Of a stretch of DNA of 44,228 nucleotides, positions 575-43,781 are shown in pieces. Numbering within the stretch: the stretch's first letter is position 1; each line of letters begins with the position of its first letter. Under the pieces are notes generated by a model. The model saw only the letters and a program-made list of their open reading frames with translations. It was not told where the DNA came from and made no database searches. The position numbers were made by a program, and so were the translations under genes. Source of the DNA: Escherichia phage BUCT825; the sequence record PV040721.1, one strand, 5' to 3'.

Positions 575-862
575 CTAACTATAATAGTTCGCTATTAGGT
601 CGTCAACCTGTTTAAACGACCCGACGACAAAAACATTCGCACCGCGTTTACGCATACGCGCGTGCTCACGTAACTGATGAGGGTCCGGCTTCGTGTTTTC
701 GTCTTTCTTCACCTCGACAAACCAGACTATGCCGTCTGGGAGAATTACCAGCAGGTCGGGGGCGCCCACTCTATTTTCGTATGACAATTTGCGTACGAGG
801 CCACCGAGGGCCTCGAATCGCTCTTTTGCGTATTTCTGTATTTTGCCCTCAGGCGTACTCAT
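575..862 (-). CDS. VRR-NUC domain nuclease (95 aa)
   Basis: Small protein with GAPDLLV...VEVK motif typical of VRR-NUC/PD-(D/E)XK fold. Confidence 0.65.
   Translation of the reverse strand: MSTPEGKIQKYAKERFEALGGLVRKLSYENRVGAPDLLVILPDGIVWFVEVKKDENTKPDPHQLREHARMRKRGANVFVVGSFKQVDDLIANYYS
578..606 (-). promoter_or_regulatory. sigma70-like promoter, minus strand (-35 TTGACG 601-606, 17-bp spacer, -10 TATAGT 578-583), inside the 3' end of the VRR-NUC gene
   Basis: Reverse complement reads TTGACG-N17-TATAGT; near-identical to elements at 3987-4015 and 7083-7111. Confidence 0.6.
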
Positions 863-947
863 CTACGCACCCTTCTCGTTTCGTATGCTCAACCCCACAG
901 CGAGGACAGATTCGGCAGTCTTCTTCGTAGAACCAGTAAATTTTCAT
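849..947 (-). CDS. putative 32-aa Cys-rich (zinc-ribbon-like) peptide
   Basis: Manual translation MKIYWFYEEDCRICPRCGVEHTKREGCVDEYA; start overlaps stop of upstream micro-ORF (ATGA), 3' end overlaps VRR-NUC start. Confidence 0.25.
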   Translation of the reverse strand: MKIYWFYEEDCRICPRCGVEHTKREGCVDEYA

Positions 948-1075
948 TCCAGCACCCACAGATAAATTGCGATGAACATGATCAATATGGCAACCATCAT
1001 GCCGTATTGACCCTCGTGACAGTAGACACCGGCGGCAAATCCAGCCAGTACCGCGATAATCAGTTTACTTGGCAT
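944..1075 (-). CDS. putative 43-aa hydrophobic membrane peptide
   Basis: Manual translation MPSKLIIAVLAGFAAGVYCHEGQYGMMVAILIMFIAIYLWVLE; start overlaps the polymerase stop. Confidence 0.25.
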   Translation of the reverse strand: MPSKLIIAVLAGFAAGVYCHEGQYGMMVAILIMFIAIYLWVLE

Positions 1076-3245
1076 AACGCTTCATCTCCGCACCTTCTGC
1101 TACAAGAGGGAACCCCTCCGCCCATTCAGGTAATTCGCACATCAACCGCTCAAGCTCTGCGACATTGTATTCTGGTAAATCCGGTGTCTCGCAGATAATT
1201 TCATCGTGAACATGAAGCACAATCGGGTAGCCGTTTGCTTCGACGTTCAGCAGCGCATTAGCCAGCAAATCACGGCACAGCGCCTGTGTGCAGTTTTCCA
1301 CGAGTTTACCGGAATATGTGTACTGGAAGCCCCACTGACGGGTTAACTGATTTTCTCCCTGGTACTTTATGCGCACGTTAGTAGACACCTTCCCATCTTC
1401 GTCTGTCTCTTTCGATACGCTCAACCCTACGCCTGGGTAAGACATAACGCGGCCCGACGGCAACGTCATGCGCAGCCACCAACCGGCGACTTTGTTGCTG
1501 TTGTTGTCTGTCTCTACGTTGCGCGAAAACTTAACTCCCCGCGGCCCCGCGGTGAACTCTTTGCCCGGATTGCGGATAGCCGCCATAGCCGCATCTTCAA
1601 TATCACGCCAGAAAGCTACTGTTTCCGGGTGTGACTCACGCCACATACGCTTGATAGCGTCGCAGGTACGCCACACTTTCTTATCAAGAATATAAGATGG
1701 TCGGTCATCTTTTTCACCAGGACGTGGCGGTCGCTTGGCTTCCTGAATACGCGCCCACTCATATCCACGTGCGGTAGCAGCCCAGATGTGGTCGGGGAAA
1801 GTCCCGTCCATTGTTTTTGCCATATCAACAAGGTCAAGGCCGAGGTTTTTGGCGAACTGTACGAATGCACCGACACCACCCGCGTAGCCAAGTCCCAGTT
1901 CGCAGGCCTTACCAATCTGGCGTAAGTCTTTACGTTCTTTCTTAATGTAATCCGACTCCATGCCAAACATCTTGCCTGCGGTTACGCAGTAAATATCCAG
2001 CCCGGCACGGAACGTATCAAGCGCGGTTTCTTCGCCAGCCAGCCACGCCAAACCGCGGCCTTCAACGTTAGAGTAATCGGCGACGACAAACTTATGCCCG
2101 GCTTCAGGTATAATGCAGCTGCGCACCGTCGATGCCGTTAGTTTGGCTACATCGAAACGGCGGTGCGCACGGCCTTTAAGTAACGCAGAAATGCCTTTAT
2201 CCAGTTCGTCGTCGTGATAGTACCCGCGAGCCAGGTTCTGCGGCTGGAAGCCTTTACCCGCAAATCGTAACGTACGTTTAGCTCCACCATACTGGATGCA
2301 ACCGCGACGGCGGTCGTCAGACGAGCGGCCTAACAGCAGCGGGTTATATTTCGTTGACGCAGTGGATGCCGCCCCGAGGCGCATTTCGATAATCGTGCGG
2401 GCGTCGTCCGGTAAATCATCATCCGCCAACAGGTCATTTAGCGTCGACTTCTGCGCGTTGTGGATTCGGTGCGCTGGCGCAAGTTCACGCAGAATAGGAA
2501 GGAAGTCTTTACCAGTAAGCGAGCCGCCGTATTTACGTTGGGCTTCTTCCTGCAACTGCGCTTTGTGTTTCTCTACCGCTTCAATCGCGGCTTCCGCCAA
2601 CGCAACGTCGACCTTAAACCCGCGGTCGTTGATTAACTGGTCCAGTTCCAGTACACGGTCCTCAAACTCCGAGTTACCCCACCGCGGTAGCTTATGGAAC
2701 ACTTCACGCATCGCGGTGATGTCGCTAACTGCGTACTTGATGAACAGCGCCCACTCGTCAGGGTGCGTTTCGGCGGTATAGCGGCGAATTTTGTAGTTCT
2801 TCGGTGTCGGTTTAGAGAAACGCTGAATCAGCGCCTTACCGCGTTTGTCTTTTGCGTTGTCAGCAGATACGCCCAGCACTTCGCACAGCGCATCGAGCGA
2901 ACCCGGCAGCGCGTGACGAAACGCCCAAATCATCGTATCAATGGTGTTGCTTACCGGAATGTCAAAACCCCAGCAGTGTTTCATGACGAGCCTATCGAAC
3001 ATTGAGCCGTTGTGCCACACCATCTTAACGCGGCTGTTCGGCTTAACCAGGCGGCGTAACGCGCGATACAAATCGCCCGGCATATCGCTGCCGTCGGTGC
3101 AATCCCATACCTGTACAGGCTGGTCGTTAAAAGCATATGTACAGATTAGCACTTCGGTAGTTGGATGTTCGGCGTAAGCGTAGGAACCGACTTTCTTCAA
3201 ATCGGCTTCGGAGAATGTTTCAAAGTCTAAGAACAGGTAACTCAT
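1065..3245 (-). CDS. Family A DNA polymerase with N-terminal 3'-5' exonuclease domain (726 aa)
   Basis: Exo I motif LDFETFS; Pol motif A DYSNVEGR, motif B RQIGKACELGLGYAGG, motif C VLHVHDEI. Confidence 0.9.
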   Translation of the reverse strand: MSYLFLDFETFSEADLKKVGSYAYAEHPTTEVLICTYAFNDQPVQVWDCTDGSDMPGDLYRALRRLVKPNSRVKMVWHNGSMFDRLVMKHCWGFDIPVSNTIDTMIWAFRHALPGSLDALCEVLGVSADNAKDKRGKALIQRFSKPTPKNYKIRRYTAETHPDEWALFIKYAVSDITAMREVFHKLPRWGNSEFEDRVLELDQLINDRGFKVDVALAEAAIEAVEKHKAQLQEEAQRKYGGSLTGKDFLPILRELAPAHRIHNAQKSTLNDLLADDDLPDDARTIIEMRLGAASTASTKYNPLLLGRSSDDRRRGCIQYGGAKRTLRFAGKGFQPQNLARGYYHDDELDKGISALLKGRAHRRFDVAKLTASTVRSCIIPEAGHKFVVADYSNVEGRGLAWLAGEETALDTFRAGLDIYCVTAGKMFGMESDYIKKERKDLRQIGKACELGLGYAGGVGAFVQFAKNLGLDLVDMAKTMDGTFPDHIWAATARGYEWARIQEAKRPPRPGEKDDRPSYILDKKVWRTCDAIKRMWRESHPETVAFWRDIEDAAMAAIRNPGKEFTAGPRGVKFSRNVETDNNSNKVAGWWLRMTLPSGRVMSYPGVGLSVSKETDEDGKVSTNVRIKYQGENQLTRQWGFQYTYSGKLVENCTQALCRDLLANALLNVEANGYPIVLHVHDEIICETPDLPEYNVAELERLMCELPEWAEGFPLVAEGAEMKRYAK

Positions 3246-3265
3246 TATTTTCGACCCTTAGTAAA

Positions 3266-3285
3266 AAGGCCCAATGAAGGGCCTT
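3266..3285 (-). terminator. Intrinsic terminator-like hairpin on minus strand between SSB-like gene and polymerase gene
   Basis: Minus strand reads AAGGCCC-TTCATT-GGGCCTT followed by TTTTACT. Confidence 0.45.
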
Positions 3286-3304
3286 AGTTAAATTGATTCA
3301 GATA

Positions 3305-3931
3305 TTAGCGGCGGCGACGTTCGCGGCGCGGTGCTTCATCTTCTTCGTCGTCTTCCAGGTCATTGACGCTCGCAGCGACTTTAGAACCGCCGAACGCTTT
3401 GCCTTCGCCAACGTATTTAATCGCCAGCAGGTTAACGCCGAGGACTTTGTATTTCTGGCTGAACCAGATTTCAACGCTTACGTTAGCTAAGCATCCGCTG
3501 TAAACCTGTTCACCTTCAATCTGTTCACCGTCTACATTGAAGTCCTGTTCTACCTGAGTCTCACCTTTTTTAGAGGTTACAATCAGCGGCTGCTTCTGTG
3601 CCTTCGCTTTGAAGTAGAAGCCTTCCGGGAAGTCTTCAAACGGATTGTCACGCTCGGCAATGTCTTTAATCGCACATTTATCCATGTGCTTACCTTCGCC
3701 GTAGTTGGACTTCATCCACTTCTCGGCGGCGGCTGCACCTAACGCTTCTTCAACTACAGCGTAAACGGTGTCGTAGAGCGCGTCGATTTGCGCGTGGTCG
3801 GACGGCAGGATAATAGTCGCGCTGTACTGACCTTTAGTGATTGAACCATCATCATTTTCACGGTCTTTTTCGCGTTCGAATACGTTAACCCAAGCAGTGT
3901 TTACTTTACGCAGATTTAATTTCAGTCCCAT
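3305..3931 (-). CDS. putative ssDNA-binding protein (DUF2815-like), 208 aa with acidic/arginine-rich tail
   Basis: Position between nuclease and polymerase, own promoter and terminator, acidic C-terminus DDEEDEAPRRERRRR; family assignment from memory. Confidence 0.45.
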   Translation of the reverse strand: MGLKLNLRKVNTAWVNVFEREKDRENDDGSITKGQYSATIILPSDHAQIDALYDTVYAVVEEALGAAAAEKWMKSNYGEGKHMDKCAIKDIAERDNPFEDFPEGFYFKAKAQKQPLIVTSKKGETQVEQDFNVDGEQIEGEQVYSGCLANVSVEIWFSQKYKVLGVNLLAIKYVGEGKAFGGSKVAASVNDLEDDEEDEAPRRERRRR

Positions 3932-3986
3932 TTCTCGATTCCTCAGTTTTCAGTTTACTCCGGGAGCTGCCCGGCCAGTGATTAGA

Positions 3987-4015
3987 ACTATAATAGCTAA
4001 CTATTCAGGTGTCAA
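3987..4015 (-). promoter_or_regulatory. sigma70-like promoter, minus strand (-35 TTGACA 4010-4015, -10 TATAGT 3987-3992)
   Basis: Reverse complement TTGACA-N17-TATAGT; conserved with 578-606 and 7083-7111. Confidence 0.65.
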
Positions 4016-4019
4016 CACT

Positions 4020-5261
4020 TTATTCTAAATCTTCTTCACTAACCTTATTCCACTCAGGACGTTTGTCGTCCGCTGTTGTGACGCATGGCGCCCCCGGCTT
4101 ACGTGTGATGAAGTCTTTCAGTTCTTCTTCTGGTATTACTTTAACCGCTTCGGTCGGCGTCAGGAGCACTTCTTTAGTCAGCTTGTCGCCGTAGAGTTCT
4201 GCTACTTTCTCTGCGTCTTTCCACGCACGATTACCTGGGCGACCTTCCACCAGCTTGTACCCTGGCACTTTCTTACCGGAATGCAACGCAGCAGCCATAG
4301 CTTTTTCGACCTTATCGATGTGCTGGCGCAACAACGGCAACTTCTCATATTCAGCTACGAGTTGCTCCGGCGTAAGTTCCAGCGCAAAGTCGTCCTCCAG
4401 TTCTTCGGCAAGTACAGAATTAACCGTCTTTGTACGCGCTGCGCACTGTTCAGAGAACCGACACCACTGACAACCGTCGACAGACGGCTTAAAGTCCGAC
4501 GCTTTCAGGTTCTTCTTGCCTCGGAAATACGCATCAAGGGCTAACAGTGCGCGTTTCTGTGCGAACTTAGCGAACAGTTCCAGACCTTCAACCGAGATGT
4601 CCCACTCCGACGCGCCCCCGGCGTACGGCTGGAAGATGACTAGGCGCACTACTGATATGTTATAACGTCTCTTGAGTCGGCGGTAAACACCGAGAGCGTA
4701 GAGCATAAGCTGCTTGTTTTCTTTCGCTTCGACATGATGCCGTCCTGTTTTCAGGTCGCCGATAATGAGCATATGCTCGTCAGTGTTCGCCAGTTCCTGA
4801 ACGGCAACAAGGTCAGCGGTTCCGAACGTCTCAACGCCTTCGTAACCCGGATGCAATACCTCAGTAAGATTTACCCGCATTTCCAGCTTGGCGTAAGTCG
4901 CTACGTCGATAATCGCTTTGCAGTAGTCGGTGTACTTGCGCACCTGCTCAATCATGTCAGCCGTAATCAGTACCGCGCCTTTCATCTGGCTAATTAGCGC
5001 CTTAATCTGGCCTTTACCCTCGTCCAGCACGTAAGCGCCGACTTCACGCTCCAACGGCAACGCAGTGCCGCGTATATAGGCGTTGAGATGGACCTCAGCT
5101 ATGGTGTGCATGGCGGTTCCTGATACAGCGGCTTTACCCGACGTGTTAGGGATATCTTTTTCACACGCCAGCGACGCAGCGCATGACAGCCACTTTTTAG
5201 CGCCTGACGGTGACAGTAAGGCGTGTACATCATTATTGCCGCCTCGTTCTTTTAGTTTCAT
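4020..5261 (-). CDS. PD-(D/E)XK / Cas4-like nuclease (DUF2800-like) with C-terminal Cys cluster; start may be 5282
   Basis: ORF 4020-5282; internal ATG at 5261 has a better SD (GGGAG); C-terminal CQWCRFSEQC motif; N-terminal LSPSGAKKWLSCAAS. Confidence 0.6.
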   Translation of the reverse strand: MKLKERGGNNDVHALLSPSGAKKWLSCAASLACEKDIPNTSGKAAVSGTAMHTIAEVHLNAYIRGTALPLEREVGAYVLDEGKGQIKALISQMKGAVLITADMIEQVRKYTDYCKAIIDVATYAKLEMRVNLTEVLHPGYEGVETFGTADLVAVQELANTDEHMLIIGDLKTGRHHVEAKENKQLMLYALGVYRRLKRRYNISVVRLVIFQPYAGGASEWDISVEGLELFAKFAQKRALLALDAYFRGKKNLKASDFKPSVDGCQWCRFSEQCAARTKTVNSVLAEELEDDFALELTPEQLVAEYEKLPLLRQHIDKVEKAMAAALHSGKKVPGYKLVEGRPGNRAWKDAEKVAELYGDKLTKEVLLTPTEAVKVIPEEELKDFITRKPGAPCVTTADDKRPEWNKVSEEDLE

Positions 5262-5412
5262 GCTCTTAAACTCCCACCCCATTTAACTTTACGCGTTTTG
5301 CGCTTGTAGGCGCACGTGTCACCGCTACGGTTGAATATAATCAGCCAAGTCGAGTTGCTTACTCGAAAAGGCTGGTGACATTTAATAAAGAGAAGTCGCG
5401 CTTTACGGTTCG

Positions 5413-5562
5413 TCATTCTGCAATCTCCACAATACGCGCATTAGTGAAACTGCGTGCGAAGCCGAATGTGTAGAAGATGTACTGGGCTTCGTCCAAACGT
5501 GCGTAGCGGCTGTGTTCCTGGTCTTTACCGTCTATTTCTACAATTATCGCGTACCTTGTCAT
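5413..5562 (-). CDS. putative 49-aa protein
   Basis: Manual translation MTRYAIIVEIDGKDQEHSRYARLDEAQYIFYTFGFARSFTNARIVEIAE; ATGA overlap with upstream ORF stop. Confidence 0.3.
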   Translation of the reverse strand: MTRYAIIVEIDGKDQEHSRYARLDEAQYIFYTFGFARSFTNARIVEIAE

Positions 5563-5831
5563 ACCCTGCTCTCCCACTGGTCGATTAAATGTCGCGTCTT
5601 ATGTTCGCAGTGCATAGCCCACCCATACATCGACTCAAAGACATAAAAGTCTGGCTTGGCGAATGTCGTGCGCTTAATCTGTGACACGTGACGGCCTATA
5701 TCTTTAGGCCGCGGTACTTTGCCTAAGTAAGCCATCTCTTCCATCTGGTGCGCTCCGGACGGCGCACGCAACAGCCATAGTGCCTCTGTGTTGTCCCGCC
5801 TGTCGACGGCGCGGTAGAGTTGGTAAATCAT
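5559..5831 (-). CDS. hypothetical protein (90 aa)
   Basis: ORF in tightly packed minus-strand operon. Confidence 0.5.
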   Translation of the reverse strand: MIYQLYRAVDRRDNTEALWLLRAPSGAHQMEEMAYLGKVPRPKDIGRHVSQIKRTTFAKPDFYVFESMYGWAMHCEHKTRHLIDQWESRV

Positions 5832-6031
5832 TTCCTTACCCTCGCAGAATTAATCCACGTGAAAACATCGTCAATAGAAAAATCGCCGTCGAAAACCTTC
5901 TCAACTTTGCTGGCCTTCTTGACCGTCGTAGGGTGTTTGTTGTCTACCGCCTGAAATACGTAAACCAAATCATTTTCAGCGACAACGCTACCAGAAATCA
6001 TAAGACCACTTTTCTTAGCTAAAATAGCCAT
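5828..6031 (-). CDS. hypothetical protein (67 aa)
   Basis: ORF with overlapping start/stop; conserved SD context CTGAGGGTCG upstream. Confidence 0.5.
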   Translation of the reverse strand: MAILAKKSGLMISGSVVAENDLVYVFQAVDNKHPTTVKKASKVEKVFDGDFSIDDVFTWINSARVRK

Positions 6032-6042
6032 AATTCCGACCC

Positions 6043-6258
6043 TCAGTAGTACGGCGCAAATTCACCTTTAACGGCGGGACGAATTGTATGTACCGCCGTT
6101 TTATCGGTTGGGTACATGTCCGCCCAATATTCGCCAGCGGCATAGTCAAGAGTCCCGCGCCACGCACCATTCAAAACAAAGAATTGCTGACAACCCACAT
6201 ATGAGTCACTTATTTCTACAACTATTTGTTCGTTTATTACTTTGTATACGTTACTCAT
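6043..6258 (-). CDS. hypothetical protein (71 aa)
   Basis: ORF; conserved SD context CTGAGGGTCG upstream. Confidence 0.5.
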   Translation of the reverse strand: MSNVYKVINEQIVVEISDSYVGCQQFFVLNGAWRGTLDYAAGEYWADMYPTDKTAVHTIRPAVKGEFAPYY

Positions 6259-6278
6259 TATTACGACCCTCAGTTAAA

Positions 6279-6294
6279 GCGGCCCGAAGGCCGC
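6279..6294 (-). terminator. GC-rich hairpin (GCGGCC-CGAA-GGCCGC), possible weak terminator on minus strand
   Basis: 6-bp GC stem, 4-nt loop, followed on minus strand by TTTAACT. Confidence 0.3.
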
Positions 6295-6301
6295 CAGATA
6301 A

Positions 6302-6802
6302 TTATTCTTCTTCGAAATACTTGTTCTTGATTGCTGTCAAGCGTTCCAGGTATTCAGCCAGGTCTTCGTCTTTAATCGCTGCAATCTTCATTTTCTTACC
6401 AGTGAACTCTTCCAGCAGTTCATCAGAATCGTCGCACGCGGCATCGCTAGGACCTTCATTAATTGCATCGTCGATGGCCTGAATCTGGTCACGCAGAGAC
6501 TTGTAATCGACTTCTTCTTTCTCTTCTTCCGGTTCTGGCGCAGGTTCCTCTACTTTAGCTTTACGCGGCTTGCGTTTTGGCTTCTCTTCCTCCGCCGGTT
6601 TAGTGTCAACTACGTCTTCACCTTCAACCGGGATTTCTTTTGTTGCTTCTTCAGCGCACTCAGCTACCGCTTCTTTGGTGTACGATACCGTCTCTACTTC
6701 CAGCGGCGTGGCAACCTGAACAACTTGTTTCGCACTGTTCGCGGCAATCAGTTCATGTGCAACTACGAAACGTTCCAGCAATACTAAGAATTTCTCTAAC
6801 AT
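6302..6802 (-). CDS. highly acidic hypothetical protein (166 aa)
   Basis: Long E/D-rich stretches (EEEKPKRKPRKAKVEEPAPEPEEEKEE, DDSDELLEEF). Confidence 0.55.
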   Translation of the reverse strand: MLEKFLVLLERFVVAHELIAANSAKQVVQVATPLEVETVSYTKEAVAECAEEATKEIPVEGEDVVDTKPAEEEKPKRKPRKAKVEEPAPEPEEEKEEVDYKSLRDQIQAIDDAINEGPSDAACDDSDELLEEFTGKKMKIAAIKDEDLAEYLERLTAIKNKYFEEE

Positions 6803-6826
6803 TTGTTTCTCTCCTGTTTGTGTAAG

Positions 6827-7054
6827 TTACTCACCGTCGCCTTCAGTAAGGCTATCGTCTATTAGTTCAAATTTACCGTTTGAGTGTTGAATAGCTTCTT
6901 GCCCGCAATGGTCACAGACAACAAGTTTATCGAACCCATCAAACTCATCCCCTACTACGCAAGAAAGTACAAATTTATGTTTTGTGCACACTTCTTGCGG
7001 AGCGCCGAAAATTGCTCGAAAACCTTTAGCTATGGCCCCAGTGATTGTGTTCAT
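6827..7054 (-). CDS. small Cys-rich (zinc-finger-like) protein (75 aa)
   Basis: Cys pairs CTKHKFVLSC and CDHCGQ; SD GAGAGGGG upstream. Confidence 0.5.
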   Translation of the reverse strand: MNTITGAIAKGFRAIFGAPQEVCTKHKFVLSCVVGDEFDGFDKLVVCDHCGQEAIQHSNGKFELIDDSLTEGDGE

Positions 7055-7082
7055 ATCTGCCCCTCTCGTTTGGTATGGGCTA

Positions 7083-7111
7083 ACTATAATAGCGAACTAT
7101 TCACATGTCAA
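7083..7111 (-). promoter_or_regulatory. sigma70-like promoter, minus strand (-35 TTGACA 7106-7111, -10 TATAGT 7083-7088), divergent from the Cro-like gene
   Basis: Reverse complement TTGACATGTGAATAGTTCGCTATTATAGT. Confidence 0.65.
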
Positions 7112-7175
7112 TGGGCTTTTCTAAAATAATTAATATGGTACTATTCACATATCAACTGACTAAGGAGTAACTGAC

Positions 7176-7391
7176 ATGCAACCATCTGAACTAGGCATCC
7201 GTGTAGAGCAACGCCGTAAAGAACTCGGTATCTCCCAGCGCCGTCTGGCTGTTCTGGCCGGCGTTTCCCAGGGCGCGATTAACCAGCTTGCACTCGGGGT
7301 AACTCAGGACGTACGCCCGGCAACGCTGTTTAAACTGGCGGAAGTGCTGGAAGTAGACGCCAAGTGGCTGGCGCTAGGTGAAGGGGCGTAA
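7176..7391 (+). CDS. XRE/Cro-like helix-turn-helix transcriptional regulator (71 aa)
   Basis: HTH signature ISQRRLAVLAGVSQGAINQL; SD TAAGGAG upstream; only plus-strand gene in a minus-strand module. Confidence 0.75.
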   Translation: MQPSELGIRVEQRRKELGISQRRLAVLAGVSQGAINQLALGVTQDVRPATLFKLAEVLEVDAKWLALGEGA

Positions 7392-7406
7392 CGCCCCTTT
7401 CTTTTT
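7382..7406 (+). terminator. Intrinsic terminator whose loop is the Cro-like stop codon
   Basis: AGGGGCG-TAA-CGCCCCT followed by TTCTTTTT. Confidence 0.6.
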
Positions 7407-9725: not shown

Positions 9726-9959
9726 TTATTCCAGGTCTTCTAAAGTAGCGGTCATTCCGCGAACTTCGGCAACAGCACTATATTTCCCGCCAACATTTTT
9801 CACGACACCAGATTTAACCAGTACCTTCAACGACCCTTCAATAATGGCGGAACTATAGTACCTAAAATAACTACGGCGCAAGTCCATAACGCTGCACGAC
9901 CCTTTTTTACAGGTTAATGAAACGACTGCCGTAAATACGCGGGACTGGAACTCGGTCAT
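9726..9959 (-). CDS. hypothetical protein (77 aa)
   Basis: ORF with stop/start overlap to upstream gene. Confidence 0.5.
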   Translation of the reverse strand: MTEFQSRVFTAVVSLTCKKGSCSVMDLRRSYFRYYSSAIIEGSLKVLVKSGVVKNVGGKYSAVAEVRGMTATLEDLE

Positions 9960-10126
9960 TTTACATTCTCCTTAATCCACGCTTCCACTTTCTCCGGGTT
10001 GAAAGTACCCGGCTGCCGGCGGCCCATAATACGGATACAACAATCCGGGAACTTCCCACTCTTTAACCAGTTATTCAGCGTGCGACGGGTAACCCCAATA
10101 CGCTCGGCTACTTCATTCTGTGTCAT
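9956..10126 (-). CDS. small HTH DNA-binding protein (AlpA/excisionase-like fold), about 56 aa
   Basis: MTQNEVAERIGVTRRTLNNWLKSGKFP; ATG at 10126 with GGGGGT SD; the longer ORF to 10159 would overlap the -10 of its own promoter. Confidence 0.6.
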   Translation of the reverse strand: MTQNEVAERIGVTRRTLNNWLKSGKFPDCCIRIMGRRQPGTFNPEKVEAWIKENVK

Positions 10127-10158
10127 TCTCAAACCCCCATTATCAGTTAACGAAACCA

Positions 10159-10187
10159 AGTATACATTGCGAATAATGGGAAATCAA
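10159..10187 (-). promoter_or_regulatory. sigma70-like promoter, minus strand (-35 TTGATT, 17-bp spacer, -10 TATACT)
   Basis: Reverse complement TTGATT-N17-TATACT directly upstream of the small HTH gene. Confidence 0.55.
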
Positions 10188-10202
10188 ACATAATCGCACC
10201 TA

Positions 10203-10231
10203 TTGACATTAAGAAAATCTTCGTTTAAGGT
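10203..10231 (+). promoter_or_regulatory. candidate promoter, plus strand (-35 TTGACA, 17-bp spacer, -10 TAAGGT)
   Basis: Perfect -35 with correct spacing; weak -10; back-to-back with the minus promoter. Confidence 0.35.
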
Positions 10232-10467
10232 GCTTCTATATCTTAGTTACTTTGATTCCTGTTCACCTTGTAAAACCCGCCGAAAACGAGCGCCCAACGC
10301 GAAGTGTTAGGCGGCAGTTTACTGAACATTCGAATTATCGTAACTTTCCTTCCTAAGTATCTCCGGTTGCCCTGGGCAAGCTCTATTCCCATCGGCGGAA
10401 TATATCTTAAGTATCTGATTTTCTTAAAGTGCCGTAGATTCGCAACCGTAAAAATGTAACGATTATT

Positions 10468-10488
10468 GGGCAGGCTTAGGGCCTGCCC
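10468..10488 (+). terminator. Hairpin GGGCAGGC-TTAGG-GCCTGCCC followed by TTTAGTT (terminator-like) inside the 450-bp noncoding region
   Basis: 8-bp perfect stem read directly. Confidence 0.35.
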
Positions 10489-10570
10489 TTTAGTTACCAA
10501 GTAATAAGAATAAAGGCACAACCCTACCTGAAGAATCACAACGGCAACGTAACCATTTTCAATGAATCTC

Positions 10571-10599
10571 TTGCACACCCCAACATAATAGGTTACTAT
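10571..10599 (+). promoter_or_regulatory. Early-type promoter (-35 TTGCAC, 17-bp spacer, -10 TACTAT followed by TCAC)
   Basis: TTGCACACCCCAACATAATAGGTTACTATTCAC; near-identical copies at 12262-12290 (+) and 32118-32146 (-). Confidence 0.6.
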
Positions 10600-10633
10600 T
10601 CACTTATTGAAACTAGACAGAGGAGTTAGGGTT

Positions 10634-10819
10634 ATGTTTAAGAAGGGTCAGTTGGCTAAAACGAAACGCGGCGGACAGTACGTAATAGTTACCCAGGACG
10701 AAAATGAATACAGTATCGCTGTAGATGTATGGGGTCTTATACGAAAGAAACATGGTTACGCCTTCCGCGATAATTTAAAACTCATCGGCAACAATTTTAA
10801 ATTCAAAGGGGCGAAGTGA
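10634..10819 (+). CDS. hypothetical small protein (61 aa)
   Basis: ATG with SD GAGGAG; first gene after promoter. Confidence 0.5.
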   Translation: MFKKGQLAKTKRGGQYVIVTQDENEYSIAVDVWGLIRKKHGYAFRDNLKLIGNNFKFKGAK

Positions 10820-12261: not shown

Positions 12262-12290
12262 TTGCACACTAAGATAGAATAGGCTACTAT
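12262..12290 (+). promoter_or_regulatory. Early-type promoter (-35 TTGCAC, 17-bp spacer, -10 TACTAT followed by TCA)
   Basis: TTGCACACTAAGATAGAATAGGCTACTATTCA. Confidence 0.6.
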
Positions 12291-12322
12291 TCATTTACAC
12301 AGACGAGACAGAGGAAAACGAA

Positions 12323-13657: not shown

Positions 13658-14094
13658 CGACTATCGCGTTCGACGGAAAGACAATGGCCTGTGACACACG
13701 TGTTGTGTGCGGGGATAACTACTACAACACAGATACTAAGATATACGAAAACGATACTTATGTTATCGGGGTAGCGGGTGACGCTGGAGTTGGTACTATG
13801 CTTATCGACTGCCCGTATATCCTCCAGGCCAGACATTATGATTTTGATTTCGAGGCCCTAGTGTATGAGAAAGACGCGGAAAAGGTGTATAAAGTCGCGT
13901 TTTATAAATCATGGGATTGTGCACTTAGTTCAGTTATTCCGGTTGCCGATGCGTACGCTGCCGTTGGGTCCGGTTCCCCTTATGCACTGGCGGCTATGGA
14001 ATGTGGGTATTCGGCGCATGGCGGTGTAGCCGTTGCATCGAAGTTTGACACTAACACCGGCGGCAAGATTATTACCAAACAACTATTAGGATAA
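13654..14094 (+). CDS. HslV/proteasome-beta-like Ntn-hydrolase family protein (146 aa)
   Basis: N-terminus MTTIAFDG (Thr directly after Met, as in HslV MTTIV); GVAGDAG and VGSGSPYALAAM resemble HslV GFAGG and IGSGGPYAQAA; alignment done by eye. Confidence 0.5.
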   Translation: MTTIAFDGKTMACDTRVVCGDNYYNTDTKIYENDTYVIGVAGDAGVGTMLIDCPYILQARHYDFDFEALVYEKDAEKVYKVAFYKSWDCALSSVIPVADAYAAVGSGSPYALAAMECGYSAHGGVAVASKFDTNTGGKIITKQLLG

Positions 14095-15979: not shown

Positions 15980-16001
15980 ATCTGTTTTCTGTAATGACTA
16001 G

Positions 16002-16030
16002 TTGACTATTATCCTCGACCCTATTATATT
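16002..16030 (+). promoter_or_regulatory. sigma70-like promoter (-35 TTGACT, 17-bp spacer, -10 TATATT)
   Basis: TTGACTATTATCCTCGACCCTATTATATT upstream of the 16065 gene block. Confidence 0.55.
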
Positions 16031-22978: not shown

Positions 22979-22994
22979 AACTATTCGAATAGTT
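22979..22994. promoter_or_regulatory. Perfect 16-bp palindrome AACTATTCGAATAGTT (candidate operator) overlapping a -35 hexamer
   Basis: Self-complementary sequence read directly; half-site ACTATTC recurs in several promoters. Confidence 0.5.
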
Positions 22995-23021
22995 GACTTT
23001 TCACTTAAAATGTGCTAAGCT
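22993..23021 (+). promoter_or_regulatory. candidate promoter (-35 TTGACT, 17-bp spacer, -10 TAAGCT)
   Basis: Hexamers and spacing read directly; weak -10. Confidence 0.35.
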
Positions 23022-28493: not shown

Positions 28494-29662
28494 ATATGGC
28501 TACAACTCCTTTTAAGGGCGCGAATACTGCGCAATTCTATGTGGCAGAAACTATCCCCGGCGTAACACCAAGTAACCCGGTCTGGTCGCCATTGCGCAAT
28601 ACGGGCGGCGTTCCCGCCATTACCCGCGACACGCTGACCTCCAACGAACTGGACGGCAGCCGTGAAACTACGTCCATCCGCACCGGTAACAAACAGGTTA
28701 GCGGGGAATACGCCATCGAGCTTAGCTCGAAAAGCCAGGACGACTGGTTAGCTGGGGCTTTAGGTTCTACGTGGCAATCCGGTGTTTCTCTGTCCGGTCT
28801 GTCTATTACCGTCGCCCCGGCGGGAAAGACGTTCACCCGTGCTGATGGCAGCTTTATTACCGACGGCGTTGAAGTGGGTGACCTGATTGCGTTTACCGAC
28901 TTAACGGGTGATAACGCCAAACCGTTTATTGTTACTGCAGTAACGGCTACGGTTGTTACTGGTGCGGGCATCCAACACACCCTGACCACCGAGACAAAAA
29001 CTAGTAAGGCTAAAACTGGCGACACGTTGGAAACCGGTAACGCGTGTAAGACGTTCTCTATCCTTACCTGGTACAAAGGCCAGTGCGGCGGTACTGACGC
29101 GTACACGTTAACCAAAGGCGTGGAAGTTTCTGGTTTTACCATCGAACAGGCTGTTAACGCGATGGTAACTGGCAGCTTCCCATTCATCGGTCGCAGTCAG
29201 GAGATTCTCACTACGCCGCCGACCGGTTCCAACTTCTCATCTGTTACTTTTGGTGATGAGCCGTTCTCTTCGGTTGACGTTTCCGTGTTCGACGGCTCTA
29301 CGCCGTTGCGTTGCGACAGTCTGACTATCACCAACGATAACAGCGCGTCCGCGCAGTTCGAACTTGGTAACACTAACGTAGCGTTTGTGGAGCGTAGCCG
29401 TGCAGCTAACACCTTCTCCATCTCCGGTAAGCTGTATGACATGGCGATGATTCAGAAGTTTATCAACGAGCAGCAGGTAGAGATTAACTCCATTCTGGCG
29501 GGGGTAAACGGGGCTATGTCTTTCAGTTTGAAACGTGCAGAGCTTACGGCGGTCACACCTGAGATTGGTGGCCCTGAGTCAATCACTCAGTCTATTGAAG
29601 GCCAGGCCACCGGCAACCAGTACCAGTCGTCTATCGTAATTCAACGTATTAGTTACGCGTAA
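28490..29662 (+). CDS. major tail (tube) protein, 390 aa
   Basis: Large Thr/Ser/Gly-rich protein followed by strong terminator; position before chaperone/TMP block. Confidence 0.55.
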   Translation: MNMATTPFKGANTAQFYVAETIPGVTPSNPVWSPLRNTGGVPAITRDTLTSNELDGSRETTSIRTGNKQVSGEYAIELSSKSQDDWLAGALGSTWQSGVSLSGLSITVAPAGKTFTRADGSFITDGVEVGDLIAFTDLTGDNAKPFIVTAVTATVVTGAGIQHTLTTETKTSKAKTGDTLETGNACKTFSILTWYKGQCGGTDAYTLTKGVEVSGFTIEQAVNAMVTGSFPFIGRSQEILTTPPTGSNFSSVTFGDEPFSSVDVSVFDGSTPLRCDSLTITNDNSASAQFELGNTNVAFVERSRAANTFSISGKLYDMAMIQKFINEQQVEINSILAGVNGAMSFSLKRAELTAVTPEIGGPESITQSIEGQATGNQYQSSIVIQRISYA

Positions 29663-29690: not shown

Positions 29691-30245
29691 CTACAAACCT
29701 AATTTTAAAGCAATGTCTATAACGTTCGATTTAACGTCACCTGGTATGATGTAGGTGTCGTAATCTTTTACACCATCAACGCCATACAGATAGCCACGGC
29801 TGTCCCCTTCAAACGTATAGCCGTCTCTGTGCAAGCGAACAATTCTTACGTCATGCCCAGCGGCGACGATAGGGACCACTTCACTGGCGAATCCACCGTC
29901 GGACACTACAAAAACTTCGTCGCCGTCAGGCAAGTTTTCAGCGAGATATTTACCGAAATAATCGCTGCCGAGGGCCGGTTTAATGAATTGTTCAGAGATA
30001 GCAATCATGAACCGACGGCGCGACAACCCATTAAGGAAACCTTCTGGCTTTTCTTTCCTGGCCCGGTCGTCGTAGCCGTCGAGAAACTCGTGGTAAGCAT
30101 CCGGGCCTAACGCAGCCATAGCGATATTGAACATCGGATTCTTGAAACTGGTAGTTCCTTTCGCAAAGCCCATTTCTACCAGTGCCATAGCAAGCGTGTC
30201 TTTCCCGCAACCCGCAGGGCCATTAAGAATAATTACCTTAGCCAT
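29691..30245 (-). CDS. P-loop nucleotide kinase, T4 Dnk-like (dNMP kinase family), 184 aa
   Basis: Walker A ILNGPAGCGKDT resembles T4 Dnk LSGVKRSGKDT; start overlaps HAD stop by 1 nt. Confidence 0.7.
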   Translation of the reverse strand: MAKVIILNGPAGCGKDTLAMALVEMGFAKGTTSFKNPMFNIAMAALGPDAYHEFLDGYDDRARKEKPEGFLNGLSRRRFMIAISEQFIKPALGSDYFGKYLAENLPDGDEVFVVSDGGFASEVVPIVAAGHDVRIVRLHRDGYTFEGDSRGYLYGVDGVKDYDTYIIPGDVKSNVIDIALKLGL

Positions 30246-30730
30246 TATTTATCGCTCCCATGTGGTTTTAAGTGTGTAGAGTTCCCGTTACAGTCGTATT
30301 CAGTAACCGCGTGAGTGGTTATGCCGAGTTCGCGGAAATGCTTTATTACCGCTGGCGAGTCGTCGAATGCACACAAGATTCTTTCCAGCCCAATAGCACG
30401 CAACACCTCTTCTTTAATTACGATGTCTTTTCTGTTGTCGTGTTTGCTGCGCATGATTAGCTGATAAAATTCGACGCGGTGGCGCTGCAACCACATTCTG
30501 GTTTCTTTTTCTGCATCATCACTACGGCCCGTTAAAATGATAACGGCATAGCGACGATTGAGGGCGTTACACAGTTCTATGTTATCTCTAATTGGTTCAT
30601 CATCTTTGCACGCCATGTTAAAGGGCTTCCACGCCCATGTTTCGTTGTAGTTATCTTTCGGCAGCAGGTGCAAACGATGTGTCCCATCCGCCAATGTCCC
30701 GTCTAAATCGAAAATTACAATATCTTTCAT
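30245..30730 (-). CDS. HAD-family phosphatase resembling the T4 Pnkp 3'-phosphatase domain, 161 aa
   Basis: Motif I IFDLDGTLA; ILTGR; KDIVIKEEV; FDDSP pattern parallels T4 Pnkp IFDVDGTLA / VVVSGR / KDDVVKEEI / IDDR. Confidence 0.7.
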   Translation of the reverse strand: MKDIVIFDLDGTLADGTHRLHLLPKDNYNETWAWKPFNMACKDDEPIRDNIELCNALNRRYAVIILTGRSDDAEKETRMWLQRHRVEFYQLIMRSKHDNRKDIVIKEEVLRAIGLERILCAFDDSPAVIKHFRELGITTHAVTEYDCNGNSTHLKPHGSDK

Positions 30731-31857
30731 CCCAGCATCTCCGGTGAAATAGTTAAACGTGCGACCTCGCCAAATTCGGCGCTATAAGTAATTACATTTG
30801 CACTACGGCCCGACATCCAACCTCCGCGGGAGGCGTAGGCGTCTTTAGCCGCTAAGGTGCGGTGTTGCTCAACAATCATGTTACGGCTTTCTACAATCTT
30901 CTGGTGGTGCAGATGGCCTACGTGGGCGTAGCTGTAAACACTCTCGCCGAACGCTTTACGGAACTTGGCAATCATAACAGGTTCAATAGCGTCGAATCGT
31001 GCTTTATGCCCGTGATGGAAGAACAGCGTCGTTTTGCCGTGTTGCACCATCTTGTAAACATCCGGTGACGTATCGACGAACACACGCGGCTCATTGTCAT
31101 ACAGCGTACTGAACATCTCAGCCAACCAAATCATGCCACTTTCGTCGTGATTCCCTTGCACGATAAGCAAGCGAACATTTTTATGCTTAACCAGCGCCAT
31201 ATCGACAACACGGCGGACCATGCGAATCATGTAGCGGACAAGTTTCTGGTAACGGGTGTCGGCGTCAAGGGCGTGACCGCTTGCAGGTGTAACGGCAACC
31301 AGACTATCGAAGTGCGCGAAGTCGCCCAGCAGGTTAATAACCCCAGTCCCCGCATCCGGTGCTTTCTGGAATGCCGCATCGAACCAACGGGAGAACAGGT
31401 CTTCTGCAATCTTCATATCCCAGTCGTCGCCACTCTCGTCGGCCCAGGCCAGCATACCGAGATGGAAATCAGACACAGTGTAAAGGTTGAGTAGCTTGTC
31501 GTCCCGTTTGGCGCGAACGGCTTTAACAGGAGCAACGGGGGTAATCTCCGACTTCATGCCCTCGATTATGGCTTTCATCAACTCGACCTGACGTTCGGCA
31601 TCGGTGTCGGTCTTAACCCATTGCAGTTTAGTGTTGCCTAACTCATCAACCAGAGACGATGTACCCTTAATCTTGTAGCCGTCCGGCACAAGGTGGCTAA
31701 CGTCACGCCCGTGGCCTACGCCTTTCTTCGCTAGTTTCGCTTTACGGATACGAATAACGCGGTCTGAGATGCCGTATTTACGAGCAATGTCGATATTCTT
31801 CATCCCAGCGTTCAATTCTTCCTGTAACTGTTCGTCGGTTATTTTCTTCTGGGCCAT
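30727..31857 (-). CDS. Calcineurin-like metallophosphoesterase with N-terminal sigma-region-4-like HTH (about 376 aa; longer ORF to 31962 less likely)
   Basis: Motifs DFH, GDFAHFD, VQGNHDE, FHHGH, HVGHLHH; N-terminal NIDIARKYGISDRVIRIRKAKL; ATG 31857 with SD GAGGAA. Confidence 0.7.
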   Translation of the reverse strand: MAQKKITDEQLQEELNAGMKNIDIARKYGISDRVIRIRKAKLAKKGVGHGRDVSHLVPDGYKIKGTSSLVDELGNTKLQWVKTDTDAERQVELMKAIIEGMKSEITPVAPVKAVRAKRDDKLLNLYTVSDFHLGMLAWADESGDDWDMKIAEDLFSRWFDAAFQKAPDAGTGVINLLGDFAHFDSLVAVTPASGHALDADTRYQKLVRYMIRMVRRVVDMALVKHKNVRLLIVQGNHDESGMIWLAEMFSTLYDNEPRVFVDTSPDVYKMVQHGKTTLFFHHGHKARFDAIEPVMIAKFRKAFGESVYSYAHVGHLHHQKIVESRNMIVEQHRTLAAKDAYASRGGWMSGRSANVITYSAEFGEVARLTISPEMLG

Positions 31858-31895
31858 GCCTATTTCCTCGTGTTTAGGATTTGTCTTATAGTAGC

Positions 31896-32087
31896 CTACT
31901 TCTCTTTCACGTTCGAGTTGCAAGCCCAGATTAAAATAAATACCCACGGCAGCAGAACCCAACCAAGAAACAGATTAGCCATGAATATCGCTAACTTCGC
32001 TTTATGGTTACGGAAGTACGCAACCAGGAAAGGCGCGAAATAAGCGAGCAGTGCAAACAGAATTAAGGAAACTGGTAAACTGGACAT
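31896..32087 (-). CDS. small 2-TM membrane protein (about 63 aa), first gene of antisense cassette
   Basis: Hydrophobic segments LPVSLILFALLAYFAPFLVAYF and LFLGWVLLPWVFILIWA; SD GAAGGGG. Confidence 0.5.
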   Translation of the reverse strand: MSSLPVSLILFALLAYFAPFLVAYFRNHKAKLAIFMANLFLGWVLLPWVFILIWACNSNVKEK

Positions 32088-32117
32088 TTTAAACCCCTTC
32101 ATTGTTGGTGTAAGTGA

Positions 32118-32146
32118 ATAGTACCCTATTATATTGGGGTACGCAA
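32118..32146 (-). promoter_or_regulatory. Early-type promoter on minus strand (-35 TTGCGT, 17-bp spacer, -10 TACTAT followed by TCAC) driving the antisense cassette
   Basis: Reverse complement TTGCGTACCCCAATATAATAGGGTACTATTCAC, nearly identical to the promoter at 10571-10599. Confidence 0.6.
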
Positions 32147-32253
32147 GTAGTGTGTTAGAATAAGTTTGCGCCTAGTGTCGCACACGAAAAGCGGGTGGTT
32201 CCCGTCTGGCGCGTCAACCTTAACCTGTAACCTCTTAACCAAAGGATTAAAGA

Positions 32254-32705: not shown

Positions 32706-33038
32706 GTGGATAAGCATAAAATCAGAGAGTTCGATTCTATAGCTGACGGGCACGAACAGGCGCTTATCGCGATGGGTGTAATCGATAAGAAAAAACGTGC
32801 AGCGCGAAGGGGTGGGCCAGAATGCCCGCCCCTTTTTATATCCACCTTTGAGACGTACTGTGATATTAAGTTTACGCGACACGTGCGCGAGGACGCTGTA
32901 GTATTGTTCGCAAGAGAATCCGTTACGTGGCAAGACCTGAAAGCCTATCTCGATGTTACGCAAAAACAGCTTAGCCTGTTCGAGATAGACATTATCATGG
33001 GCTTAGAAGCAATCTTTGAAGGTAGAAATCATGGCTGA
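32706..33038 (+). CDS. possible tail assembly chaperone extension (gpT-like position); start uncertain
   Basis: ORF in the -1 frame relative to the chaperone gene, overlapping TMP start; no canonical slippery heptamer found. Confidence 0.3.
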   Translation: MDKHKIREFDSIADGHEQALIAMGVIDKKKRAARRGGPECPPLFISTFETYCDIKFTRHVREDAVVLFARESVTWQDLKAYLDVTQKQLSLFEIDIIMGLEAIFEGRNHG

Positions 33039-42222: not shown

Positions 42223-42360
42223 CTACTCTTCCGATAACTTCTCCAGTACAAACGCCAGTTGCGCATTAGCGGCGTCTCTCTGTTGCCGTAGTCGCAGAAC
42301 CTCCTCTTCGAGTTCCTTGATACGTTTTTGCAATGCCGGAATCGGGGCTATGATGTTCAT
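42220..42360 (-). CDS. putative 46-aa coiled-coil peptide downstream of SNF2 helicase
   Basis: Manual translation MNIIAPIPALQKRIKELEEEVLRLRQQRDAANAQLAFVLEKLSEE; ATGA overlap with SNF2 stop. Confidence 0.3.
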
Positions 42361-43781
42361 TTCTTACCTCGTCTCTTCATGTAATTAAGCAACTCTTCCT
42401 GTACCGACTTCTTCTCATCAGTGCGCGCGGCAACAACTTCGTCCAGTGTGTCTTTAGCAACGATGTGATACAGAAACACCGGGCGTTCGTGCCCCGCCTG
42501 TTTCTGGCGAACTGGACCTATACGCTCCACAACCTGCAAATAGTGCTCAAGGTTCCAGCCTTGCGAGATGAATGCCAGATGATGTCCGCCGTCCTGTAAA
42601 TTCAAACCATGCCCGGCTGACGCAGGATGCACGCATAAGATTTCGATTTCCCCACGGTTCCACGCTTCCATCTGCTTATTACCCTTAGCGCCTTTTGCAA
42701 ACGCATGAGCCTGCGGGAATCGCTTAAGGATTCGTTCCAGTTCATGCTTGAACTGATAGGCCACCAGTAACGGCGCCCCCTGTAACTCCTCGACAATGGA
42801 CTCCAGCGCATCCAGTTTCGTGTCGTGCACTTTCTCCCAGTCTTTCGTTGCTTCTCCGTCTGGCCCCGACACATATACGGCACCGGATGCAATCTGCAAA
42901 CACTTCGACGTCTTCGCCGCGGCGTTAGCCGCTTCAACCTCTCCGCTTTCCAGTTCCGCGAATAACTTTTCCTCCATATCTATGTATGCCTGACGCGCTT
43001 TCTTCGGCAGGTCGATTTCAACCGGTACGATAATAGGCGCTTCACAACCGAACCACTCGGCAGCGTCAATCGTTAGACTAATGTCCTTCATCTTCTGATG
43101 AATCTCATTGTCCGCGCCAGGGCGCGCGTGATATTCACGGGCCATCGCTGACTTACCTTTCTGTACCGAGTTAAACCAGCGGTCCGTGAACGCCGTGTAT
43201 GAAGAACCGAGGCGCTCGCCTGCGTCGATAAACCAGTTCTGCCCCCACAAGTCCTTGAGGCCGTTTGGCGACGGGGTGCCAGTAAGGTTGATGAAGCGCT
43301 TAACCTTACCGAACGCCACTTTACTAAGCGCCTTTGCCCGCTTGCTTCCGCCAGAACGGCTGCGGAATGATTTCAGCTTCGTGCTTTCATCGGCAACGAT
43401 AACCGTAAAAGGCCAGTCGTCTTTGCCGTAGTAGTCAATCAGCCACTCGATAACTTCGTAGTTGGTGCATACCACGTTAGCATCTGACTCCAGCGCAGCT
43501 ATGCGGCGCTTCTCTGGACCTGTCGCATCGACTACACTCAGGCAAGGAAAGTTCCATTTCTCTTGTTCTGCGGGCCATGTGCCGGATGCAACACGTAACG
43601 GGGCTAGGATTAACACGCGGTCCTCTTCCGTAAGCTGCCCGTTGCGGAACAAGCGGTTTAAAGTCCATAGGACGCTGCCCGTCTTCCCGGCACCCATGCT
43701 TGCCCATATGTTGCAGCGATGATGCCGCAGCATGAACGAGGTCATGAGCTTCTGGTACTCTCGACGGATAAATTTAGACAT
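42357..43781 (-). CDS. SNF2-family DEAD/DEAH-box helicase, 474 aa
   Basis: Walker A SMGAGKTG, motif II VADESTKLK, motif III LTGTPSPN. Confidence 0.85.
   Translation of the reverse strand: MSKFIRREYQKLMTSFMLRHHRCNIWASMGAGKTGSVLWTLNRLFRNGQLTEEDRVLILAPLRVASGTWPAEQEKWNFPCLSVVDATGPEKRRIAALESDANVVCTNYEVIEWLIDYYGKDDWPFTVIVADESTKLKSFRSRSGGSKRAKALSKVAFGKVKRFINLTGTPSPNGLKDLWGQNWFIDAGERLGSSYTAFTDRWFNSVQKGKSAMAREYHARPGADNEIHQKMKDISLTIDAAEWFGCEAPIIVPVEIDLPKKARQAYIDMEEKLFAELESGEVEAANAAAKTSKCLQIASGAVYVSGPDGEATKDWEKVHDTKLDALESIVEELQGAPLLVAYQFKHELERILKRFPQAHAFAKGAKGNKQMEAWNRGEIEILCVHPASAGHGLNLQDGGHHLAFISQGWNLEHYLQVVERIGPVRQKQAGHERPVFLYHIVAKDTLDEVVAARTDEKKSVQEELLNYMKRRGKK

Follow-up and report, generated by a model that had tools for sequence, protein, structure and literature searches.

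The Cro protein of phage 434 binds 14-bp operators as a dimer. Repressors with dispersed operators are known from other phages, namely C1 of P1, gp71 of mycobacteriophage L5 with its stoperators, and the repressor of phiC31 with its conserved inverted repeats. Moreover, proteins of the MerR type act from promoter spacers, and bidirectional promoters with a shared symmetric -10 region have been described for bacteria. The DNA considered here is that of Escherichia phage BUCT825 (sequence record PV040721.1), and the whole stretch of 44,228 nucleotides that was analysed is referred to as the window. It carries a spaced palindrome, AATAG-N4-CTATT, exact or with one mismatch, at some nine sites on predicted promoters, which together would serve nearly every transcription unit. 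These dyads are probably operators, placed on host sigma-70 promoters, for a dimer of a 434-Cro-like protein of the XRE type encoded at 7176-7391, and they would mediate an autoregulated shut-down.

In several respects the sites resemble the operators of 434. The dyad is 14 bp long, its outer arms are fixed, its centre is variable and it overlaps promoter hexamers, although the arms read AATAG and not ACAA. As in the 434 Cro/CI system (OR1-3, OL1-3), the phage protein is a small HTH_3 protein, here of 71 amino acids (aa), and its best PDB match is 434 Cro itself (1zug, E=2e-6, residues 6-68 of 71). Unlike in 434 and lambda, the sites are spread over the genome and not gathered in one immunity region, and binding is here predicted from sequence. 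With P1 C1, L5 gp71 and the phiC31 repressor the phage shares a single regulator, in this case a candidate, whose sites are scattered at or close to the promoters of numerous operons. The phages that encode those three repressors are temperate and their sites maintain lysogeny, whereas the present phage type is reported as strictly lytic and its dyads lie inside core promoters. In addition, the P1 and L5 sites are asymmetric whereas those described here are dyads.

The window contains six exact copies of AATAG-N4-CTATT in 44 kb (583, 3992, 7088, 10587, 12278 and 32117), against 0.06 expected. Ten copies with at most one mismatch are found against 0.92 expected, and nine of the ten fall within promoter-like elements, six of them exact and three with a single mismatch. 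When all 5-mer palindromes with gaps of 0 to 8 were counted de novo and without prior hypothesis, AATAG-N4-CTATT ranked first among the spaced palindromes of the window and also of phage Jersey. The original prediction was limited to three promoters between 578 and 7111, and six promoter-like dyad sites lie beyond that range. The sites take three registers relative to the promoter hexamers. Counted from the -35, the dyad begins after 4 nt in class A (S1-S3) and after 10 nt in class B (S4, S5 and S6; TTGCAC or TTGCGT-N17-TACTAT), where it takes in the -10; in class C (S7 and S8) a TTGACT -35 is itself overlain by a one-mismatch dyad. The dyad is also found in both orientations relative to transcription. 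The symmetry, the several registers and the two orientations point to a separate DNA-binding protein and not to an element of RNA polymerase, and a dyad lying between or over the hexamers of near-consensus promoters with 17-bp spacers has the geometry of repression. A phage regulator site superimposed on sigma-70 promoters, as originally predicted, is supported by the dyad symmetry, by fixed arms amid drifting spacer bases and by the varied registers.

The string TTGACR-N17-TATAGT has exactly three matches in the window, all on the minus strand, at 578-606 (S1), 3987-4015 (S2) and 7083-7111 (S3), just where they had been reported. The expectation from dinucleotide shuffles is 0.01 and no shuffle reached three. 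These are the three best sigma-70-like matches within the first 12 kb, with 10-11 of the 12 hexamer positions as in the consensus and a spacer of 17 bp, and a start codon preceded by a Shine-Dalgarno sequence follows each of them at a distance of 22-50 nt (ATG at 544, 3931 and 7054). S1 (TTGACG-N17-TATAGT, exact dyad 583-596) precedes the open reading frame (ORF) 353-544. S2 (TTGACA-N17-TATAGT, exact dyad 3992-4005) precedes the gene for a Gp2.5-like single-stranded DNA-binding protein (SSB; 3305-3931) and the DNA polymerase gene, and S3 (TTGACA-N17-TATAGT, exact dyad 7088-7101) precedes ORF 6827-7054. The last T of the dyad is the first base of the -10 in all three. The spacer string GAATAGTT.GCTAT, which had been described as common to the three copies, is found in two of them and reads TAATAGCGAACTAT in the third, so that the shared element is the dyad AATAG-N4-CTATT. 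Likewise the TAGCC said to follow the -10 is present at two copies, whereas the copy at 3987 has TCTAATC. S1 does lie inside the 3' end of the VRR-NUC-like gene, as had been noted, since it occupies the last codons of ORF 575-862, the stop codon TAG of which directly follows TATAGT. The Pfam VRR_NUC match of this ORF is weak (E=0.0016, below the cut-off), and its Jersey orthologue is annotated as VRR-NUC.

The replication cluster that these promoters would serve runs leftwards on the minus strand from 10126. It comprises the HTH_17 gene, the helicase-primase gene, the XRE gene (its sole plus-strand member), and the genes for a 166-aa protein, an exonuclease, the Gp2.5-like SSB, the DNA polymerase and the VRR-NUC-like nuclease. 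Judged from the positions of S1-S3, it is reasonable to regard them as partitioning this operon. S1 is kept across the Kagunavirus and Jerseyvirus loci. In the GenBank record of Jersey, sigma-70-like promoters are already marked at the positions orthologous to S1 (29238-29266), S2 (32925-32953), S5 (39893-39920) and S7 (42343-42371).

The class B hexamers (TTGCAC-N17-TACTAT) match the sigma-70 consensus at just 7 of 12 positions. S4, on the plus strand at 10571-10599 (TTGCAC-N17-TACTAT), has its exact dyad at 10587-10600, over the -10, and on the opposite strand the same place reads TTTCAA-N16-TATTAT (10585-10612), forming a bidirectional module at a strand-switch region that is kept across the Kagunavirus and Jerseyvirus loci. 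S6 occupies both strands at 32105-32146. Its exact dyad (32117-32130) belongs to a class B element on the minus strand (TTGCGT-N17-TACTAT, 32118-32146) and to a plus-strand partner (TTGGTG-N16-TATTAT, 32105-32132), at the second divergent junction, between a phosphoesterase/PNKP-like operon and the tail genes; its counterparts lie at 13942 in Bas76 and at 16957 in Jersey. S4 and S6 thus occupy the two divergent strand-switch junctions, where two -10-like hexamers (TACTAT and TATTAT) that face each other in one dyad recall the bidirectional bacterial promoters. Unlike in those promoters, the symmetry is that of a 14-bp spaced dyad which is also found at unidirectional promoters. A similarity of 38 nt between 10570-10604 and 32113-32147 arises because both sites also carry a TATTAT -10 on the other strand. 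A reading of this similarity as a second promoter class with a conserved transcribed leader was rejected, the supposed leader GGGGTRYGCAAG being the -35 of the opposite strand (TTGCAC or TTGCGT).

S5, S7 and S8 are on the plus strand. S5 (TTGCAC-N17-TACTAT, 12262-12290, exact dyad 12278-12291) stands upstream of a block of plus-strand genes leading into the lysis genes. S7 (15997-16030) combines TTGACT-N17-TATATT at 16002-16030 with the one-mismatch dyad ACTAGTTGACTATT (15997-16010) over its -35. It comes directly after a T-run terminator and leads into small genes and the terminase block, and its orthologues read ACTAG..CTATT in Kagunavirus and AATAG..CTAGT in Jerseyvirus. S8 (22988-23021), promoter-like with TTGACT-N17-TAAGCT at 22993-23021 and the one-mismatch dyad AATAGTTGACTTTT over the -35, is upstream of the spanin, scaffold and capsid block and is the weakest member of the set; the element is also present in Bas76 at 5229.

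The candidate operator-binding repressor is the 71-aa XRE/HTH_3 protein encoded on the plus strand at 7176-7391 (Pfam HTH_3, E=2.3e-12), whose fold is assigned by sequence matches. A match to the NCBIfam DicA subfamily falls below the cut-off. Its predicted promoter (TTCACA-N16-TAAAAT, 7100-7127, plus strand), which is a consensus match only, at 10 of 12 positions, lies between two dyads. The -35 overlaps S3, whose dyad centre is approximately 40 bp upstream of the predicted transcription start, and the predicted start region overlaps S3', the one-mismatch dyad AATATGGTACTATT at 7132-7145, which is 44 bp from S3 and forms part of a decayed minus-strand copy of class A (TTGATA-N18-AATTAT, 7126-7155). 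This arrangement of two operators of presumably unequal strength between a regulator gene and a divergent promoter resembles that of lambda PR/PRM, with S3 placed comparably to OR2 at PRM and S3' over the start; unlike in 434, two sites and not three adjoin the gene. S3 and S3' flank the XRE promoter at -88 and -44 from the XRE ATG in 38 of 38 Kagunavirus loci, with a spacing fixed at 44-45 bp. The gene is followed by a hairpin terminator at 7380-7400.

The co-occurrence of dyad and XRE gene was followed in 80 IMG/VR loci retrieved through an alignment of the XRE protein, and in the further genomes Jersey, VSiA, Tsm2 (a Serratia phage, complete) and Bas76; roughly 545 phage records contain a homologue of it. 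In each of the 37 Kagunavirus and 11 Jerseyvirus loci (L005-L051 and L080) AATAG-N4-CTATT ranks first, alone or jointly, among the palindromes, with two to six exact dyads per locus of 5-20 kb. Measured from the XRE ATG, the orthologous positions recur at about -6000, about -2500, -88, -44, about +3500, about +4800 and about +7500. In Bas76 an extra minus-strand gene creates an extra divergent junction, and this carries an extra dyad module (5138). The base preceding AATAG is G in Kagunavirus sites and T in Jerseyvirus sites.

In order to avoid circularity, alignments were anchored independently of the motif, with the XRE start codon as the reference point for S3 and a downstream hairpin as that for S2. 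Among the 36 unique S3 sequences from the 38 Kagunavirus loci the -35, TGAATAG and CTATTATA are invariant, whereas three of the four centre bases vary, and variation, with an indel of 1 nt, is also seen in the bases that follow the -35 (Fisher p=0.003 on columns). The 22 unique Kagunavirus S2 sequences retain each arm intact in 21 cases, against seven variants of the centre and seven of the segment before the arm. The single mismatch of S3' is identical in all 38 Kagunavirus loci, and that of S7 is conserved as well, which suggests selected weak sites and not decay. A scan of the whole window against Rfam at gathering thresholds gave zero matches, so that no known RNA family accounts for the conserved sequence.

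Distant XRE homologues, 34-49% identical and with other recognition helices, adjoin other palindromes in the same TTGAC-type promoter-spacer layout. These are AATAC-N4-GTATT in L052, GTATA-N6-TATAC at -95 and -44 in L078 and L079, TGTAG-N4-CTACA in L083, with one copy upstream of the gene in L076, and TTAGC-N2-GCTAA within TTGAC-N17 promoters in L068 and L074.

We infer that the XRE protein would dimerise, bind the dyads and repress in a definite temporal order. On infection no repressor would be present and the near-consensus promoters would fire through the host polymerase. With its accumulation, an XRE dimer seated on a dyad between or over the -35 and -10 would block RNA polymerase, and the promoters with exact operators would be shut first, namely those of the replication units (S1-S3) and of the divergent modules (S4-S6). 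The protein would limit its own synthesis through S3, centred at about -40, and through the weaker, conserved S3' over the start site. The weaker operators over the -35 of S7 and S8, in the late region, would be affected less or later. A more ambitious form of the proposal, which can be put forward only tentatively, is that a single repressor of the size of Cro, unaccompanied by CI, controls virtually all transcription units in a strictly virulent subfamily by means of graded operators. Exact operators would then mark early and replication promoters, and operators with a conserved single mismatch the regulator's own start site and the late-region promoters, in three registers. XRE alone would set the temporal programme, buffer the rising genome copy number, or both, with no need for a phage sigma factor, activator or RNA polymerase.

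Such a system would work like a 434 or lambda Cro-operator circuit spread over a whole virulent genome. Unlike in 434 and lambda, no partner CI gene, integrase or lysogeny module accompanies it (PMC7203180, PMC9825357). Only one short XRE gene is present, the annotations of Bas76, Jersey and XY1 contain neither an integrase nor a CI, and the Kagunavirus genome papers report no lysogeny genes (PMC7203180, PMC9825357). With neither CI nor lysogeny genes, the region is not a lambdoid immunity region.

Several points weigh against the assignment of the dyads to XRE, or limit what supports it. The right arm CTATT overlaps -10-like hexamers (TATTAT, TACTAT and T+ATAGT), and its conservation may in part reflect promoter constraint. 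The XRE-proximal intergenic region is highly conserved throughout, which limits the footprint contrast. The XRE proteins of Kagunavirus and Jerseyvirus are only about 50% identical and differ in their recognition helices (SQGAINQ versus SQSLITH), yet the core dyad is common to both. A strict search for recurring XRE-adjacent palindromes found none in Cornellvirus, L057-63, L067-71 and other metagenomic clades, so the co-variation argument rests on four clades. Moreover, the correlation between palindrome and regulator tracks phage phylogeny, as it would for any lineage-specific DNA-binding protein. The close relative K1B4 has been followed by RNA-seq over a coarse time course, and in the resulting gene-level classes the XRE gene is middle and the HTH_17 gene early (PMC12645636). 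These data neither support nor exclude the repressor model.

The small helix-turn-helix (HTH) protein of 56 aa encoded on the minus strand at 9956-10126 (HTH_17, excisionase/MerR-like; Pfam E=1.4e-7) had been named in the original prediction beside the Cro-like protein, and it could bind the dyad and repress or remodel promoters from the spacer. It has a DNA-binding HTH domain, it is among the four early genes of K1B4 by its orthologue (PMC12645636), and it is undetected in the distant loci that bear other palindromes. Furthermore it is present in the dyad-sharing Kagunavirus and Jerseyvirus with about 86% identity between the genera, against about 50% for XRE, which is a further point against the latter. 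It was nevertheless dropped as leading candidate when dyad-bearing phages without it were found. The Kagunavirus loci L017 and L037 have an unrelated cassette in its place and yet six and three exact dyads, and in the complete Tsm2 genome, which bears dyad promoters of classes A and B, no HTH_17 homologue was detected (hmmsearch, E<=1). No dyad flanks the gene's own proximal promoter (10159-10187). A dyad between -35 and -10 does recall the MerR-type regulators, but the spacers are 16-18 bp (17 bp at S1-S6), shorter than the 19-20 bp usual where MerR activates, the hexamers are near consensus and the candidate protein lacks a MerR dimerisation helix or effector domain. The MerR geometry is excluded because it requires the longer spacers. 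Binding by HTH_17 is considered unlikely, and of the two regulators named the Cro-like protein is favoured. An intrinsic promoter element, read by a phage-specific RNA polymerase or by host polymerase redirected by a phage factor, is likewise an unlikely explanation. It would agree with the constant coincidence of the motif with promoter-like sites, with the contribution of the right arm to -10 hexamers, with the poor -35 hexamers of S4 and S6 in one direction and with the listing of the motif as a phage promoter in two genome papers (PMC9825357, PMC7203180). However, the annotations of the 85 coding sequences (CDS) of Bas76 and the 69 of Jersey include neither an RNA polymerase nor a sigma factor, no phage RNA polymerase is annotated in XY1 either, and none is seen in the window, the large ORFs of which correspond by synteny to DNA polymerase, helicases, terminase, portal, tape measure and tail proteins. 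The left arm has no promoter role and is as invariant as the right. An extra element is also unneeded at S1-S3, given their 10-11 of 12 consensus positions and 17-bp spacing, and a symmetric dyad in both orientations and three registers does not suit such an element.

It is very unlikely that the dyad is bound by a host protein or by another phage protein, such as the 166-aa protein encoded at 6302-6802. The latter is the divergent neighbour of XRE even in distant loci and has no known function, but no DNA-binding domain was detected in it. The palindrome differs between phage lineages, and XRE is the only recognisable sequence-specific DNA binder common to all dyad-bearing phages. S7 resembles the core of the trp operator (ACTAGTT-AACTAGT), which is only a weak lead, and resemblances to CRP and ARG boxes were dismissed on half-site mismatch. 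Finally, the similarity might be historical, the promoters being paralogous cassettes that passed from phage to phage by duplication and recombination and are kept alike by gene conversion with no dedicated regulator. S3' does resemble a decayed duplicate of S3, an extra dyad module appears wherever there is an extra divergent junction (e.g. Bas76 5138), and the initial transcribed sequences of S1, S2 and S3 (TTAGCCCATACC... and TTCTAATCAC...) are swapped across phages. Gene conversion, however, would homogenise the centre and flanks too, whereas only arms and hexamers are fixed, and paralogues as well as orthologues differ from one another in the centre. In both S3' and S7 the single mismatch persists over dozens of phages. 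Duplication may account for the origin of the sites but not for their maintenance, and this explanation is held to be most improbable.

The motif itself is not new. The fBC-Eco01 paper reports it as PHIRE "phage-specific promoters" with the consensus tgAATAGTa-ccTATTat-T at seven sites, attributed to a phage RNA polymerase (PMC9825357), and seven PHIRE promoters are also given for Golestan (PMC7203180). The 20-mer is the one considered here and occupies corresponding kinds of position; both papers present it in lists only, and neither mentions dyad symmetry, the overlap with sigma-70 hexamers or a link to XRE. In the literature accessible without subscription no prior report of the dyad symmetry, of the operator reading or of the XRE link was found. 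Although the concept is a variation on the classic Cro/operator theme, the combination of a putative operator, a candidate repressor and a map of some nine promoters under its presumed control turns the PHIRE motif into a directly testable circuit, and the map corrects the published assignment of the motif to an RNA polymerase of the phage, an enzyme not encoded by these genomes. This can be relevant as the Guernseyvirinae (Kagunavirus and Jerseyvirus) belong to the most commonly isolated phages of E. coli and Salmonella that are considered for therapy and biocontrol, while their gene regulation is essentially undescribed. The BUCT825 window is assigned to this subfamily by sequence similarity, as a Kagunavirus phage of E. 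coli. An 11-kb query taken from it matched 469 phage records, the best being Escherichia phage vB_EcoS_XY1 (Guernseyvirinae, Kagunavirus), with approximately 96% identity over 95% of the query. The annotated "repressor" gene of these phages would be part of a lytic programme, and caution is advisable before temperate behaviour is read from it. In addition, the sites could supply repressible strong sigma-70 promoters for phage engineering.

Some further features were observed around the XRE gene. The hairpin at 7380-7400 is GC-rich and lies between the convergent ends of the XRE and helicase-primase genes. It has a T-run on the plus strand only, so that minus-strand read-through antisense to XRE is possible. 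In the IMG/VR loci L073 and L075 the distant XRE homologues have the full length of LexA/CI-like repressors, including an S24 peptidase-like region at the C-terminus, and the Guernseyvirinae protein accordingly looks like the N-terminal domain of a CI-type repressor minus the cleavage module. The 166-aa protein (6302-6802, minus strand; phrog_3127, annotated as "13.88 kDa late protein") is encoded next to the XRE gene and divergently from it, an arrangement conserved even in loci where the identity of both is only 32-42%. Comparison with Pfam, PHROGs, NCBIfam and PDB sequences gave no function, domain or PDB match for this protein, which may be a functional partner of the XRE regulator. The cassette that replaces the HTH_17 gene and a 77-aa gene in L017 and L037 lies at about +2500 to +3150 from the XRE ATG, immediately upstream of the helicase-primase gene, and encodes a 47-aa CxxC...CxxC zinc-ribbon protein and a 149-aa protein.

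The initial transcribed sequences at 561-577, 3970-3986 and 7066-7082 come in two flavours, TTAGCC(C/G)..ACC and TTCTAATCAC, which are exchanged among S1, S2 and S3 between phages, Jerseyvirus S3 variants included. This swapping suggests recombination between promoter cassettes. Directly after S2, in the leader ahead of the Gp2.5-like SSB gene, there is a hairpin CCGGGCAGCTCCCGG (3958-3975, minus strand) that is retained in Kagunavirus, Jerseyvirus, Cornellvirus and Tsm2 and could act in mRNA stability or in autoregulation.

A stretch of approximately 440 nt at 10160-10600, which separates the HTH_17 gene from the early genes of the plus strand, contains no convincing ORF and coincides with the minimum of the cumulative GC skew. 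The region has a plus-strand TTGACA-N17-TAAGGT at 10203-10231 and a plus-strand terminator at 10468-10488, with no Rfam match, and Jersey annotates a promoter orthologous to 10203-10231 with no gene behind it. A search of the 10100-10650 gap for repeats or iterons, which bears on a possible origin-binding role of HTH_17, returned short two-copy matches only. The region could encode a small RNA of about 250 nt or hold a replication origin.

The minus-strand operon at 29691-31962, amid the structural region, encodes a 411-aa metallophosphoesterase, a HAD phosphatase of the PNKP type (PF25109, E=1.5e-19) and a P-loop kinase-like protein. From these matches it looks like a nucleic-acid end-repair (Pnkp-like) cassette, apparently driven by the S6 module.

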